DNA of 64,000 nt from an uncultured SAR86 cluster bacterium (GCA_902566305.1 CACFIK010000006.1:1731-65730); one strand, 5' to 3'. Counted from the stretch's first letter, positions 3,666 to 29,606 are shown. Made by a program: numbers and translations. Notes: generated from the letters alone by a model not told the origin.

Positions 3666-6029
3666 GTGAACAAACGCAAATCAAAAAAAAGATCTTTTAA
3701 CGGATTCAATTCTATATCTTTAAGCCCATCAATAAAAACTTACTTAATTGATGCTTTTATACTTTTTTTACTTTTAGTAGCTATTATAAGCACAATCGCA
3801 CTGGCTTCTTTTACTAGAGAAGATGCTGCCTGGACAACTCAAAATATAGTTGGAGAAACTTCTTATCAAAATGCAATAGGATTGATAGGTGCGTGGATAA
3901 GCGATCTTCTCTATTCTTTTTTTGGTGTTGTAGCATGGATAGTTCCTTCATTATTTTATTTAGTTGCCTTTGCCTATTTATTTAATAAAGAAACTAAAGA
4001 GGTAGTAACGCAATCTTCATGGGTGAGATTCTTTGTGGCGATGCCTTTTGGTTTGGTGTTAATAGCTATTTCATCGAGCGCTCTTGTAGCAATTCATTTC
4101 AACTTCGGAGGAAATTATTTTCCTCAAGGCTCTGAAGGAATTTTAGGAAAAATCATCTCATCTCCATTAATTTTGTACTTAAATAAAGTTGGTGCATCTA
4201 TCTTTGTATTATTTTTATTTCTTTTAGGCATAACAGCTTTTTTCAAAATAAATTGGAAAAATTTTGTTTCAAATTTTTTAGACTTTATTGTTAATTCATC
4301 CTTTTATATCAAACAATCATCACTGTCTTTAAGAGAAAACCTTCAAGTTTTTTTAGAAAAAAGAAAAGAAAAAAATAGTAGACAAAAATTTCTTGATGAA
4401 CACAAAGCTAAGATTAAGGAAATGCCAGAACCTAAAATTGTTGAATCAGAGAAAAAAGTCGAAGAGGGAAAAAAGGTTCATAAAGAAAAACAACAAGAAT
4501 TGTTTAACGATCCTGCTCCAGGCGATATGCCTAAGATTGGATTACTTGATGAAAAAGAAACATTAGGAAAAGAAATATCTTCAAAAGAGAAGTATGAGCT
4601 TGAGATCTTAAAGGAAGCTTTAATTACCAAGCTGGCAGAATTCAAAATTACTGGCCCTGAGGGTGAATATGCAGTTGTCAAAGAGACTATGCGAGGGCCG
4701 GTTGTGACAAGGTTTGAAGTTGAATTACCAAAAGGCATAAAGGTTTCACAAGTATCAAACTTAAATAAAGATTTAGCTAGATCTTTAGGCGTTGGAAGCA
4801 TCAGAATTGTTGAAGTTATAGAAGGTAGGGAAACCATTGGTATAGAGGTTCCTAATTCGGAGAGAGAAAATGTTCTGCTTAGCGAGATAATTGCTTCAAA
4901 ATTATTTGAGGATGCAAAAAGTTCTGTTTCTTTGGCCTTTGGTAAAAATATCGAAGGTGTTCCGGTAGTTGAAGATCTTGCCGGACTTCCACACATGTTG
5001 GTAGCCGGTACAACAGGTTCCGGAAAATCTGTTGCTCTAAATTCAATGCTGATGAGCATCCTCTACAAAGCAACTCCTGAACAAGTTAAATTAGTTCTTA
5101 TTGATCCTAAAATGCTAGAACTTTCTGTTTATGAGGATTTACCTCATTTACTCTGTCCAGTTATAACCGATATGTCTGAAGCAGCCAATGGCCTTAGATG
5201 GTGCGTAAATGAAATGGAAAAAAGATACAGACTAATGGCATCACTTTCCGTTAGAAATCTTAACGGTCTTAATTCTAAAATAAGAAAAGCTAGAGAAGAT
5301 GGAGAACCTTTAACGGATCCTCTTTGGAAGAGAAATCCAGAAAAAGAAGATGACAATCCGCCTGAATTAGAGGAATTACCTTTAATAGTTATCGCTGTAG
5401 ATGAATTAGCTGATCTTATGATGGTTGTTGGTAAAAAAGTAGAACACCTGATAGCGCGTCTTGCACAGAAAGCTAGAGCGGCCGGGATTCATATGCTTTT
5501 GGCTACGCAAAGACCTTCTGTTGATGTAATTACCGGTTTAATTAAGGCAAACATCTCTGCAAGGATGGCTTTCAATGTTGCCTCTTCAATGGATTCAAGG
5601 GTTGTATTAGATCAAGTAGGTGCAGAGCAGCTGCTTGGAAAAGGAGATATGCTTTATATAGGTTCAGGCACCTCAATTCCTTTAAGAGTCCATGGTGCTT
5701 ATGTTGGCGAGGAAGAAATCATTAGAGTGGTTGAGGATTGGAAAAATAGACAGTCAGTTAGTTATTTAGAAGAGGTTACTAAAGCACCAGAATCATCTGA
5801 AGGTCCAAACGGCGAGTCAGATGAAGAGAAAGATGAATTTTACGATCAGGCAGTTGCATTTGTAATAGATTCTAGAAGAGCATCTATATCAGCTGTGCAA
5901 AGAAAATTTAGAATTGGATACAACAGAGCAGCAAGATTAATTGAAACTATGGAAAGCGCAGGTATTGTCAGTGAAATGAACTCTAACGGAAATAGAGAAG
6001 TCCTATCTCAAAAAGTTGAACTTGATTAA
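3666..6029 (+). CDS. ftsK: DNA translocase FtsK
   Basis: N-terminal TM domain, Walker A GTTGSGKS, DELADLM, ATQRPSVDVITG, C-terminal gamma domain (RIGYNRAARLIE); GTG start. Confidence 0.97.
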   Translation: MNKRKSKKRSFNGFNSISLSPSIKTYLIDAFILFLLLVAIISTIALASFTREDAAWTTQNIVGETSYQNAIGLIGAWISDLLYSFFGVVAWIVPSLFYLVAFAYLFNKETKEVVTQSSWVRFFVAMPFGLVLIAISSSALVAIHFNFGGNYFPQGSEGILGKIISSPLILYLNKVGASIFVLFLFLLGITAFFKINWKNFVSNFLDFIVNSSFYIKQSSLSLRENLQVFLEKRKEKNSRQKFLDEHKAKIKEMPEPKIVESEKKVEEGKKVHKEKQQELFNDPAPGDMPKIGLLDEKETLGKEISSKEKYELEILKEALITKLAEFKITGPEGEYAVVKETMRGPVVTRFEVELPKGIKVSQVSNLNKDLARSLGVGSIRIVEVIEGRETIGIEVPNSERENVLLSEIIASKLFEDAKSSVSLAFGKNIEGVPVVEDLAGLPHMLVAGTTGSGKSVALNSMLMSILYKATPEQVKLVLIDPKMLELSVYEDLPHLLCPVITDMSEAANGLRWCVNEMEKRYRLMASLSVRNLNGLNSKIRKAREDGEPLTDPLWKRNPEKEDDNPPELEELPLIVIAVDELADLMMVVGKKVEHLIARLAQKARAAGIHMLLATQRPSVDVITGLIKANISARMAFNVASSMDSRVVLDQVGAEQLLGKGDMLYIGSGTSIPLRVHGAYVGEEEIIRVVEDWKNRQSVSYLEEVTKAPESSEGPNGESDEEKDEFYDQAVAFVIDSRRASISAVQRKFRIGYNRAARLIETMESAGIVSEMNSNGNREVLSQKVELD

Positions 6030-27068: not shown

Positions 27069-27158
27069 TAAAATCTTTCATCGTTCTGAAACTCATATAG
27101 AATAGGCAAACCAAAAAGGAGGGGTGGCAGAGTCTGGTTGAATGCACTGGTCTTGAAA
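27069..27158 (+). repeat. Direct repeat copy 2 (attR-like), overlapping the intact tRNA
   Basis: Matches 25311-25400; contains -10 TAGAAT at 27098-27103. Confidence 0.95.
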
Positions 27159-27209
27159 ACCAGCAGGTCAGAAATGGCCTCGTGGGTTCGAATCCCACCC
27201 CCTCCGCCA
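27118..27209 (+). tRNA. tRNA-Ser (anticodon TGA)
   Basis: Acceptor stem GGAGGGG/CCCCTCC + GCCA, anticodon arm CTGGT-CTTGAAA-ACCAG, long variable arm, GTTCGAATCC T-loop. Confidence 0.98.
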
Positions 27210-27216
27210 TAAAAAA

Positions 27217-27747
27217 ATGAATATTTGCGTCTTTCTAGGTTCATCAATTGGTAAGGATCCTCTCTATGCCGAAACAGCCTTTGAATTAGGTAAACAAATT
27301 GCTATGGCTAATCATAAGCTTGTTTATGGAGGAGGAGGGCTAGGATTAATGAATGAGCTTGCAAACGGCTGCCTTTCTGCAGGAGGTGACATATATGGTG
27401 TTATTACTGAGAGATTACTTGATATGGAGGCTGGCCATGAGGGTATCCAAGAATTAAAAATTGTTCAAACGATGCATGAAAGAAAAAAACTTATGTCAGA
27501 CGCTGCTGATTGTTTTATTTTGTTACCAGGAGGAGTTGGATCATATGAAGAGATCTTCGAAATCATGGCATGGAATCAACTTCAAATTATAGATAAGCCA
27601 ATTTTTATTCTAAACACGAACGGCTTTTATGATTCTTTAAAAATATTTCTTAAGAATGCAAAAGATGAAGGTTTTTTTAATGAAAAAACATTCAATATGT
27701 TCAATTTATATGACTCAATTGAAGAAATCTTATCTAAAATTGATTAA
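27217..27747 (+). CDS. LOG family nucleotide phosphoribohydrolase (TIGR00730)
   Basis: ICVF.GSS, LVYGGG..GLM, MHERK, LPGG.G..EE. Confidence 0.93.
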   Translation: MNICVFLGSSIGKDPLYAETAFELGKQIAMANHKLVYGGGGLGLMNELANGCLSAGGDIYGVITERLLDMEAGHEGIQELKIVQTMHERKKLMSDAADCFILLPGGVGSYEEIFEIMAWNQLQIIDKPIFILNTNGFYDSLKIFLKNAKDEGFFNEKTFNMFNLYDSIEEILSKID

Positions 27748-27835
27748 AAATTAACCAATTTGCTTTTTTATTTTATATATAAATATAAAAAATTTTTTTA
27801 ATAATTAATTAATCTTAAAAAGTGCATTTTGGGTA

Positions 27836-27863
27836 TTGAATCGAACAAAAAAATCATTAGTAT
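27836..27863 (+). promoter_or_regulatory. Putative sigma70 promoter with a very AT-rich upstream tract
   Basis: TTGAAT-16 nt-TAGTAT preceded by ~80 bp that is almost all A/T. Confidence 0.55.
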
Positions 27864-27869
27864 AGATAT

Positions 27870-28055
27870 CAGTCTTTTAACAAAATTTAATTAACTCGAG
27901 ACGATTAAACAGAAGTAAAAGATGAGAAGAAGAAGGGTGAGAAGAACTGAGGAAACTCAGCCACCTGCAGGGAGAAGGGTCAATCGCCTGCATCAGTAGA
28001 ACCCACTGAACCCCTTCAACTTCGATAAAACACCACTTTTGTGGTGTTTTTTTTT
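27870..28055 (+). ncRNA. Putative structured non-coding RNA of unknown family
   Basis: GC-richer island with three hairpins closed by a long-range stem, between a promoter and an intrinsic terminator; 5' end approximate. Confidence 0.65.
28027..28055 (+). terminator. Intrinsic terminator
   Basis: AAAACACCAC-TTTT-GTGGTGTTTT plus a T run. Confidence 0.9.
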
Positions 28056-28066
28056 ATACTTACACT

Positions 28067-29050
28067 ATGGATTCCTCTCTTACAGGTATTACAACTACTG
28101 GAACGCCTCATTTAGGTAATTACGTTGGAGCTATAAAACCTGCTATACAACTTAGTAAGAAATTTAAATCCTATCTCTTTCTAGCTGACTATCATTCTTT
28201 GATAAAAGTTAACGATCCTGACGCAGTGAAAGAATCTTCCATGAAGATAGCTGCGACATGGTTAGCATGCGGACTTGATAGTAAAAACTCTCTTTTTTAC
28301 AGACAATCAAAAGTTCCACAAATACTTGAATTAAATTGGATCTTATCCTGTATGGCTCCTAAAGGACTCCTTAATAGAGCGCATGCATACAAAGCTGCAG
28401 TTGATCTAAACAAAGAAAATAAAAACGATGAGGATTTCGGTATATCTCATGGTTTATTTAGTTACCCAGTGTTGATGTCAGCAGATATTTTGATGTTCAA
28501 TCCTAAGTATGTTCCTGTAGGAAAAGACCAAAAACAGCATTTAGAGATTACTCGTGATATCGCAGATAAATTTAACAAAACTTATAAAAATTTTTTTCAA
28601 TTACCTGAACCCATTATTGATGAATCGCTTGATTTATTGACTGGTACAGACGGTAGAAAGATGAGTAAAAGTTACAATAACTCAATTGATTTATTTTCAT
28701 CTGAAAAAATTTTACAAAAATCTATCAATAAAATTAAAACCGATTCGAAAGAACCTGGCGAAAAGAAAGAAACAAAAGATTCAATTATTTTTCAGTACTT
28801 TAATCACTTTTCCGATGAAGAAGAAATAAATGAGATAACAAAAGAATTTGAAGAGGGAATTGGTTGGGGGGATGCCAAGAAAAAGTTATTTACAAAAATT
28901 AATCAAGAAATATCTCCTCTTAGAGATAAATATTTTGATTTAATAAATAATCCTAAATTGATAGAAGATACATTAGAGGCTGGAGAAACTAAGGCCAGAG
29001 ATGAGGCTAATAAAAATTTAGAGAAAATTAAGGAAAAAATTGGAATTTGA
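28067..29050 (+). CDS. trpS: Tryptophan--tRNA ligase
   Basis: HLGNY (HIGH), YPVLM.ADIL, VPVGKDQ.QH, KMSKS. Confidence 0.96.
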   Translation: MDSSLTGITTTGTPHLGNYVGAIKPAIQLSKKFKSYLFLADYHSLIKVNDPDAVKESSMKIAATWLACGLDSKNSLFYRQSKVPQILELNWILSCMAPKGLLNRAHAYKAAVDLNKENKNDEDFGISHGLFSYPVLMSADILMFNPKYVPVGKDQKQHLEITRDIADKFNKTYKNFFQLPEPIIDESLDLLTGTDGRKMSKSYNNSIDLFSSEKILQKSINKIKTDSKEPGEKKETKDSIIFQYFNHFSDEEEINEITKEFEEGIGWGDAKKKLFTKINQEISPLRDKYFDLINNPKLIEDTLEAGETKARDEANKNLEKIKEKIGI

Positions 29051-29606
29051 AAAAAGTAAAAAATCTGCTTCACATAAAAGTGAAGATTTACTTTTAAATG
29101 GTACTGACTATCTTAGATTGGGTACAAATTTCCAATGTTTAATTTCTTTCTTCTCTATAAATAATAATAAAACTTATTCATCAAAAAAATTATTAGAAAT
29201 ATACAAGGCTAGTCCTTTTTTTAATTTTCAATTAACTGGGAATTTTTTTAATTATCTGCCTAAATATCATGGGCCTTTTCTATCTAAAAATGTTCAAGTA
29301 GATAATTATCTTGAAATTCCGCCCAACAATTCTTTTTTTAAATCGCTTGATTCAGTAGTTAATGCAAAATCTAAATACAAGAATCTTATTAATAATGAGG
29401 CAATAGGAAAATTTAATGAAAGAGTAAATAAAATTTATTCTGATTGCTATAAATTTGTATTTTTAGAAAATTCTGAGTCTTTTAAAGACATCAAGCCAAT
29501 TAAATATGAGCATGAGTGGTCTCATGCACTAGTTTCTTATGATGAATTTATCTGCTTTACCCACAGCAAAAATTCTTTCTTCCTTATCTCTTTAGCAAGA
29601 GATTAA
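29040..29606 (+). CDS. Hypothetical protein
   Basis: 188-aa ORF filling the gap in a co-oriented run; no family recognised; start uncertain. Confidence 0.6.
   Translation: MEFEKSKKSASHKSEDLLLNGTDYLRLGTNFQCLISFFSINNNKTYSSKKLLEIYKASPFFNFQLTGNFFNYLPKYHGPFLSKNVQVDNYLEIPPNNSFFKSLDSVVNAKSKYKNLINNEAIGKFNERVNKIYSDCYKFVFLENSESFKDIKPIKYEHEWSHALVSYDEFICFTHSKNSFFLISLARD

Follow-up and report, generated by a model that had tools for sequence, protein, structure and literature searches.

Between a LOG-family gene and trpS, the DNA that we analyzed encodes a structured RNA that belongs to IMES-5, a family that is already catalogued in Rfam (RF02995). This DNA, which we call the window, is a 64,000-nt stretch from an uncultured bacterium of the SAR86 cluster (GCA_902566305.1 CACFIK010000006.1:1731-65730), and positions are counted from its first letter. 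Our overall reading is that the RNA is a small RNA (sRNA) encoded by a single-copy, stand-alone gene, that it has two domains, that it is a paralogue of IMES-1, and that it is not a leader of trpS. We put the probability of this reading at about 85%. A first-pass annotation, made from the sequence alone, had proposed that the RNA was novel. It is not, because it is a strong and full-length match to RF02995 (141.2 bits), and a strong Rfam match was the outcome that the annotation itself had named as the one that would overturn its claim. What we add to the known family is its host order, its presence at one copy per genome, its promoter-like site and terminator, its synteny with trpS, the covariation of its pseudoknot, its paralogy with IMES-1, the apparent lack of Hfq and ProQ in its hosts, a shared distribution with CsrA, its presence in RNA libraries, and a palindrome that is swapped between variants. 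These additions do not make the RNA novel, as IMES-5 was already in Rfam.

The identification is straightforward. When the whole window was scanned against Rfam 15, there were just two matches, tRNA-Ser(TGA) at 27118-27209 and IMES-5 at 27874-28024 (+ strand). The IMES-5 match scores well above the cmscan gathering score for the family (96.1 bits), with an E-value of 4.7e-28 in the scan of the whole window and of 3.3e-30 in a local search. It spans positions 1-150 of the 150 in the model, so it is not truncated, and all of the helices are present. Membership in IMES-5 is thus indicated by the gathering score, by the full length of the match, and by the covariation of the helices (see below). 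A permissive cmscan of 27700-28150 at E <= 1 found IMES-5 only and gave no match to T-boxes, riboswitches, 6S RNA, tmRNA, SRP RNA, or RNase P; the first-pass annotation had likewise not recognized the RNA as tmRNA, RNase P, SRP RNA, 6S RNA, or a T-box. IMES-5 was reportedly first listed in the supplement of a study by Weinberg and colleagues from 2017, and the family is typed as "Gene; sRNA" in Rfam. In its main text, that study makes no mention of "IMES." The supplements of Weinberg 2009 and 2017 may already state part of the context that we describe here.

IMES-5 is confined to one gammaproteobacterial order, which is probably SAR86 and whose genomes are 0.9-1.8 Mb. We refer to the four families of this order, which are all that it has, as f1-f4; the window's genome belongs to f1. 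We found one match to IMES-5 per genome, in the window's own genome, in 36 of 61 relatives, and in 64 of 151 genomes of the order. By family, IMES-5 was found in 33 of 40 genomes from f1, 29 of 40 from f2, 1 of 40 from f3 (a weak match), and 0 of 30 from f4. Outside the order, we found neither IMES-5 nor IMES-1 in any of the 150 genomes of a sample of the class. We also searched a collection of species-representative genomes for a pattern of invariant letters, which gave 15 stretches, 14 of them in marine metagenome-assembled genomes (MAGs) labelled "Gammaproteobacteria bacterium." The fifteenth, in Verrucomicrobiaceae (L037), has no IMES match at E <= 1, and we treated it as chance. Similarly, the pattern CCCTTYA(N)ACTTCG gave only stray matches across the order beyond the known loci, and four of these (L088-L091) have no IMES match at E <= 1 and were also treated as chance.

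The 5' domain of the RNA is a two-tier hairpin (27874-27921). It has an outer stem (27874-27879 with 27916-27921), an inner stem (27886-27892 with 27903-27909), and a 10-nt loop, AACUCGAGAC (27893-27902), which includes the palindrome CUCGAG (27895-27900). The 3' domain is a four-way junction that is closed by P1, in which GAAG-AA-GAAGGG (27926-27937) pairs with CCCUUC-AA-CUUC (28012-28023). P2 (27947-27960) is a hairpin with a GAAA tetraloop, which is present both in the Rfam consensus and in the minimum-energy fold. The loop of the P3 hairpin (27966-27992) contains GGGU (27977-27980), and the loop of the P4 hairpin (27993-28009) contains its pseudoknot partner, ACCC (28001-28004). The conserved letters of the junction are GGGUGA and CCACC. 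According to ViennaRNA, the minimum-energy fold of 27874-28055, which is also the centroid fold, has an energy of -50.2 kcal/mol (z = -3.5; 1 of 200 shuffles was as good), and it contains both the terminator and the P1-P4 helices, the latter in agreement with the consensus structure for IMES-5 in Rfam. The first-pass annotation had placed P1-P4 and the terminator correctly, but it overlooked the hairpin that makes up the 5' third of the RNA. We also considered a conserved small open reading frame (ORF), and rejected it: an ATG at 27923 opens a frame of 25 codons in genus g1 only, and the ATG is missing in other genera.

The fold is supported by covariation across homologues, as the first-pass annotation had suggested checking. 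We trained a covariance model on 31 distinct sequences (set A1) and used it to align 96 matches, 78 of them distinct, which came from genomes, from named MAG contigs, and from metagenome contigs. Standard pairs occupy 88.7% of the cells in the 78 distinct rows, as compared to 70.3% in shuffles, and double changes are seen in 32 of the 46 pairs. These observed values were reached by 0 of 500 shuffles, and slid controls were all at or below 49.5%. Both stems of the 5' hairpin covary (double changes in 7 of 7 pairs for helix 1 and 5 of 6 pairs for helix 2), as do P2 (5 of 5 pairs) and P3 (8 of 10 pairs). Two points count against our reading here. First, apart from the pseudoknot, the helices were already part of the model to which the sequences were aligned. 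Second, although P1 is paired in 100% of cells, 9 of its 10 pairs are invariant (the variable pair is GC 61 times, AU 9 times, and GU 8 times), so the case for P1 is mostly energetic.

The pseudoknot helix was absent from the model that made the alignment. Loop 3 and loop 4 can pair (GGGU with ACCC) in 98.4% of cells among the 78 distinct homologues, and the four pairs are GC 72 and AU 3; GC 78; GC 77 and UA 1; and UA 66 and UG 10. So the compensatory support for this pseudoknot is modest but real, and the kissing complementarity that was noticed in the window's sequence holds up. The same cannot be said of a switch that was proposed from the pairing of GGUG (27936-27939) with CACC (27962-27965). 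Both motifs are present, but while the 5' side is invariant, the 3' side varies without compensation, and only 46 of the 78 distinct rows allow all four pairs to form. Because the changes on the 3' side are uncompensated, we do not count this pairing as a conserved helix.

The RNA appears to have its own signals for transcription. It lies in a gap of 319 nt between the stop codon of the LOG-family gene (27747) and the ATG of trpS (28067), and within this gap it forms an island of higher G+C content (about 0.44, versus 0.16-0.19 in the flanking spacer). The promoter-like site (27836-27863, + strand) has a -35 box of TTGAAT (27836-27841), a 16-nt spacer, and a -10 box of TAGTAT (27858-27863), and it ends 10 nt before the first position of the Rfam model. 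A promoter scan of 27400-28400 listed no promoter on the + strand, because the site matches only 8 of 12 consensus positions. Nevertheless, the layout of TTGnnn, 16-17 nt, TAnnAT, and another 9-10 nt before the RNA is kept in 36 of 36 loci from 8 genera. Downstream of the RNA is an intrinsic terminator (28027-28055, + strand), with a 10-bp stem (AAAACACCAC/GUGGUGUUUU) around a UUUU loop (28027-28050) and a T-run that extends to 28055. This is the sole terminator-like site that was found by a scan of 27400-28400, and the hairpin is also in the minimum-energy fold. So the first-pass annotation's description of a long gap with a promoter-like site, a structured core, and a strong terminator stands. 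More broadly, its view that this is a discrete, structured, and conserved small RNA in a streamlined genome (about 1.1 Mb) was correct.

The terminator hairpin is present in 31 of the 36 loci. In f1, all 29 loci have the stem letters ACACCAC/GUGGUGU (with CAUCAC in one of them), and the stem has a compensated change, CGC/GCG, in two loci from genus g8. In the five other loci from f2, the hairpin is missing, and the RNA is as conserved there as elsewhere.

The neighbors of the RNA in the window are both on the + strand. Upstream is the LOG-family gene (Lysine_decarbox/SLOG; 27217-27747; Pfam PF03641, E = 7.5e-36), and downstream is trpS, which encodes tryptophanyl-tRNA synthetase (28067-29050; Pfam PF00579, E = 2.6e-58). 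We note in passing that the tRNA-Ser gene (27118-27209, + strand, anticodon TGA) ends 8 nt before the start codon of the LOG-family gene at 27217, and that trpS overlaps by 11 nt with a downstream ORF of 188 amino acids (29040-29606, + strand) that has no match in Pfam at E <= 0.001.

IMES-5 lies upstream of trpS, and on the same strand, in 30 of the 30 loci that we tested by tblastn, with the TrpS proteins being as little as 56% identical. This adjacency is synteny rather than regulation in cis, because in f2 a convergent LigT-like gene (a 2H phosphoesterase, PF02834, of 181-194 amino acids) sits between IMES-5 and trpS at all 7 loci. The inherited gene order is LOG, the RNA, the LigT-like gene, and trpS, and the LigT-like gene was lost in f1. 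IMES-5 is thus a stand-alone gene with its own promoter-like site and terminator, and not a leader of trpS. In f3 and f4, where trpS lies 33-40 nt from a divergent gene, we did not find a divergent IMES-5 upstream of trpS. A leader that acts in cis should always be directly 5' of one gene and in one transcription unit with it; this is the arrangement in 29 of 29 loci from f1 and in none of the 7 loci from f2. The suggestion that the RNA might be a riboswitch-like element is weakened accordingly, since the gene that comes after it in f2 is convergent and is not one that it could control.

Several more observations weigh against our reading, and they mostly concern trpS. Its start codon is 12 nt after the T-run of the terminator in the window, and the spacing is the same in all of f1. 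In three RNA libraries, there are contigs that begin within the RNA and extend into trpS (28000-28431 in X3, 28003-28557 in X6, and 28003-28368 in X7), so some transcripts may read through the terminator, which could have a side effect on trpS in f1. The letters of the terminator stem are oddly conserved, beyond what a plain terminator needs. And in our search of the literature, we found no experiment or paper on the function of IMES-5.

A rival explanation is that the RNA is a cis-acting leader of trpS, such as a riboswitch, a T-box-like element, or an attenuator that binds TrpRS. The folded RNA would allow the terminator to form, and an alternative pairing, for example of GGUG at 27936-27939 with CACC of the terminator at 28031-28034, would allow read-through into trpS. 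Such a leader would account for the position of the RNA directly upstream of trpS in all of the loci that we tested, for the terminator that abuts the start of trpS in 29 of 29 loci from f1, and for the bridging contigs from three RNA runs. Also, the CACC/GGUG in the conserved terminator stem resembles the motifs of the junction, and the junction itself, with its conserved unpaired letters, is reminiscent of an aptamer. On the other hand, a LigT-like gene intervenes in all seven loci from f2, and five of these lack the terminator hairpin without any loss of conservation in the RNA; trpS has no such RNA upstream in f3 or f4; the paralogue IMES-1 precedes unrelated genes; there is no match at E <= 1 to the T-box or to any other riboswitch; and the alternative pairing of GGUG with the CACC in the junction (J2/3) is uncompensated. 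Finally, trpS seems to have its own start signals. In f2, it has its own leader with AGGAG. In f1, the sequence TATACT (28055-28060 in the window, + strand), which overlaps the T-run of the terminator, is 6 nt before the ATG, which fits a promoter of trpS's own. Across 29 of 29 loci from f1, there is an invariant TTTTTTTTTATACT, then 6-9 nt, and then the ATG, and to judge from the sequence, TATACT may serve as the -10 element for a trpS mRNA that has no leader. Overall, we consider a leader of trpS to be very unlikely, and we prefer a stand-alone gene whose neighbor is inherited.

Two side observations arose from this comparison. First, trpS is seemingly leaderless not only in f1 (TATACT, 6 nt, ATG) but also in f3 (TATAAT, 8 nt, ATG). 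Second, each RNA family has terminator stems with a conserved sequence of their own, namely ACACCAC/GUGGUGU for IMES-5 (28027-28050) and CAGAGC/GCUCUG in the flanks of IMES-1. The sequences are kept even between genera with protein identities of only about 60%, and none of the explanations that we offer covers this conservation.

Marine RNA libraries from several studies contain IMES-5, and the contigs that carry it reach very high depths. In each of 14 RNA runs from marine or seawater samples, we found 43-74% of the words sampled from 27750-28250. For four of the runs, from four studies, we compared contigs from Logan, rather than the raw reads, to the region 27300-28700. In all four, many short contigs cover 27877-28032, with per-contig depths of up to 21,020. 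In X7, for example, the contigs at 27916-27970 and 27947-28001 have depths of 21,020 and 17,760, and a contig that extends into trpS has a depth of 21.7. The summed word depth is 84,644 to 1,722,503 over 27911-27957 and 7.6 to about 300 over trpS, but these runs were chosen because they contain this stretch, relatives with identical RNA add to the sums, and contig depth cannot rank genes. For these reasons, we read the depth as presence only. Adapter letters at the ends of contigs (before 27885-27908 and behind 28005-28032) show that very short inserts were assembled. The bins from 27488 to 27863 have no contig cover in any of the four runs, which is not in itself evidence for a transcript start. 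The first-pass annotation had proposed to look in metatranscriptomes for a discrete RNA of about 185 nt, and assemblies from four studies do contain the RNA. As an aside, in metagenome contig L230 (13-160), IMES-5 breaks off inside P4 and is followed by unrelated sequence that looks like coding sequence. This is probably a chimera that was assembled at a very deep k-mer node.

IMES-5 is a paralogue of IMES-1 (RF02034), and each of the four families has retained one or both of these RNAs. True IMES-1 was found in 31 of 40 genomes from f2, 35 of 40 from f3, and 24 of 30 from f4. In f1, the IMES-1 model matched in 4 of 40 genomes, but all of these are cross-matches at IMES-5 loci, so there is no true IMES-1 in f1. 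In f2, the two RNAs are encoded about 13.7 kb apart (e.g., in G043). Taken together, IMES-1 and IMES-5 make up a single RNA superfamily, which is specific to one streamlined order of marine Gammaproteobacteria and nearly universal within it. Rfam has no clan that joins RF02034 and RF02995.

Several features link the two RNAs. Like IMES-5, IMES-1 has a two-tier 5' hairpin whose loop, AACU-NN-AGAC, contains a 6-nt palindrome; a purine-rich linker; a multi-stem junction that is closed by P1 and contains GGGUGA.A and CCACC; and complementary loops on its last two hairpins. They occur in the same order and each model matches the other's loci. The weak match to IMES-5 in f3 is a full-length IMES-1 (188 bits with RF02034) that the IMES-5 model scores at 31.6 bits, and conversely, the IMES-1 model matches four IMES-5 loci from genus g2 at 31-35 bits and one from f2 at 30.5 bits. 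IMES-1 differs in being longer (about 190 nt), with a much longer P2, in having a pseudoknot like GAGA/UCUC rather than GGGU/ACCC, and in having a conserved CUCGAA tail. At the threshold for IMES-1 of 81 bits, there is no match in the window's genome (G000). Because IMES-5 loci score so far below this threshold, we view the RNA in the window as a relative of IMES-1 and not as a member.

The genes beside IMES-1 vary: in f2 it follows ETF-QO, in f3 it has an indoleamine-2,3-dioxygenase-like (IDO-like) gene on one side and pyruvate kinase on the other, and in f4 it precedes pheA. The IMES-1 motif was reportedly described by Weinberg and colleagues in 2009 as very abundant in ocean metatranscriptomes. 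A passage of Dupont 2012 (PMC3358033) places an abundant noncoding RNA from Shi 2009 within a carbon-metabolism region of SAR86 genomes. The location of IMES-1 upstream of pyruvate kinase in f3 fits the placement given in that passage, and this fit, along with the small genomes, is why we regard SAR86 as the probable order. Several genomes from f3 have two copies of IMES-1; for example, L258 (G038:C2) has a tandem pair (4486-4677 and 4801-4992) between the IDO-like gene and pyruvate kinase. We also noticed that in three families, the neighbors of IMES RNAs concern aromatic amino acids: trpS in f1, the IDO-like gene in f3, and pheA, encoding prephenate dehydratase, in f4 (L259, 5138-5950). This may be a coincidence.

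How might IMES-5 work? In our reading, the RNA measures some 150 nt, or some 180 nt when the terminator hairpin is counted, and its transcription starts from a sigma-70-like promoter of its own and stops at its own intrinsic terminator. Its 5' two-tier hairpin displays the nearly invariant, self-complementary loop CUCGAG, and its 3' four-way junction of P1-P4 is locked by the pseudoknot between the loops of P3 and P4. It would act in trans as a structured RNA, presumably without Hfq or ProQ, and its conserved unpaired letters would most likely serve to bind a partner.

The first-pass annotation had instead pointed to the distal face of Hfq, given a run of A-R-N triplets. As a base-pairing sRNA that depends on Hfq or ProQ, IMES-5 would use this A-R-N-rich tract and the loop as its seeds. 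The tract does exist (AGAAGAAGAAGG at 27924-27935), and the intrinsic terminator with a U-tail and the conserved unpaired letters are also what one would expect from such an sRNA. However, the A-R-N tract lies mostly within the paired part of P1. Furthermore, we found Hfq (PF17209) in 0 of 5 genomes from the order (72, 94, 97, 95, and 96% complete), in a search to which 5 of 14 control genomes responded, and we found ProQ (PF04352) in 0 of 5, of which four were 94-97% complete, while the controls responded. Because neither protein was found and most of the tract is paired, the Hfq reading falls. A crude search of the genome for 8-9-nt complements to the unpaired segments gave many matches that could not be ranked, and nothing usable. 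Of the rivals that we weigh here, a base-pairing sRNA that relies on Hfq or ProQ seems to us the least probable.

IMES-5 might also be a sponge for CsrA, analogous to CsrB or RsmZ. Among genomes that are at least 85% complete, CsrA (PF02599) is present in 24 of 25 from f1, 15 of 15 from f2, 0 of 48 from f3, and 0 of 15 from f4, which is the same split between families as for IMES-5. (In the window's genome, CsrA is at G000:C8:2465-2608 on the - strand.) Also, we know of no other Csr-type RNA in these genomes of about 1.1 Mb. But the shared distribution reflects a single phylogenetic split, so it amounts to about one observation, and IMES-1 thrives in f3 and f4, which both lack CsrA. Csr/Rsm sponges are defined by several GGA motifs in hairpin loops or single-stranded linkers, and in IMES-5, no GGA is conserved across genera: it occurs only in P2 (in genus g1), in the stem of P3, and in the 5' linker. 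Given the single split and the lack of a conserved GGA, we retain CsrA as a weak lead only. As an explanation for IMES-5, we consider it a long shot, and we rank it below a leader of trpS. We continue to favor a structured RNA that would act in trans through its unpaired letters.

The 5' loop is the feature that we find most suggestive, and its palindrome points to one way that this could happen. The hexamer CUCGAG is invariant in the 31 sequences of set A1, and in a pattern search that left the center free, 56 of 56 metagenome matches had CG at the center. The hexamer is CUCGAG both in IMES-5 and in IMES-1 from f2, and it is CUGCAG in all of the IMES-1 loci from f3 and f4 that we read, so the two central letters are swapped between variants and the self-complementarity is kept. 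The loop is predicted to be unpaired, with probabilities of 0.72-1.0. The predicted duplex energies are -9.5 and -9.9 kcal/mol for pairing of each palindrome with itself, versus -1.1 kcal/mol for CUGCAG with CUCGAG. From these predictions, it is possible that two molecules of IMES-5 pair through the loop to form a kissing dimer; this is our leading guess at a mechanism, but if pressed we would bet against it. One of the 78 distinct rows (L242) has CUAGAG, which breaks the palindrome. The swap of the palindrome was a single evolutionary event, and by our count a palindrome would survive roughly one in three random double changes. And both of the paralogues in f2 carry CUCGAG, so nothing indicates that one is insulated from the other; these three points all count against a dimer. 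We had considered that the paralogues in f2 might be orthogonal, with different palindromes, and we discarded this idea, as both have CUCGAG. We also rejected a partner for the loop within the same molecule: the CUCGAA tail of IMES-1 complements the loop in f2, yet the tail is unchanged in f3, where the loop is CUGCAG, so there is no covariation.

Putting these ideas together, we can imagine that IMES-1 and IMES-5 are an order-specific superfamily of very abundant RNAs that act as symmetric kissing-loop dimers (homodimers, or in f2 perhaps heterodimers of IMES-1 with IMES-5). Each dimer would be a compact scaffold or sensor that works without Hfq or ProQ, and the terminator hairpin and the conserved letters of the junction would be part of the particle. 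We offer this model tentatively, as we think that it has a lower chance of being right than of being wrong.

Whatever its mechanism, IMES-5 seems worth studying. Its contigs are among the most deeply covered in the marine RNA samples that we compared, and its lineage is one of the commonest groups of bacteria in the ocean. The placement of the RNA in an order of genomes, its paralogy with IMES-1, and the finding of no Hfq or ProQ in its hosts should provide handles for experiments.

Finally, we compare IMES-5 to known RNAs. Like 6S RNA (RF00013), it is abundant, single-copy, and encoded by a stand-alone gene, but its fold differs. We considered and rejected the idea that it replaces 6S RNA, as the window's genome has a separate 6S gene (C13:28186-28356), and so do 58 of the 61 relatives. 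A closer structural likeness is to the "tuning-fork" junction RNAs, such as the aptamers of purine riboswitches, which also have a junction that is closed by P1, two hairpins that are joined loop to loop, and conserved letters in the junction. Unlike those aptamers, IMES-5 has a four-way junction and an extra 5' domain, it has no match to the riboswitches in Rfam at E <= 1, and it has no consistent downstream gene across families. The genomic RNA of HIV-1 dimerizes by a kissing loop at its dimerization initiation site (DIS). The DIS is unrelated to IMES-5, whose dimer is a proposal, so any likeness would be in how they work: both have a loop of 9-10 nt in which a self-complementary sequence of 6 nt is flanked by purines, and different palindromes would not be expected to cross-pair (predicted energies of -9.5 and -9.9 with themselves and -1.1 with each other).

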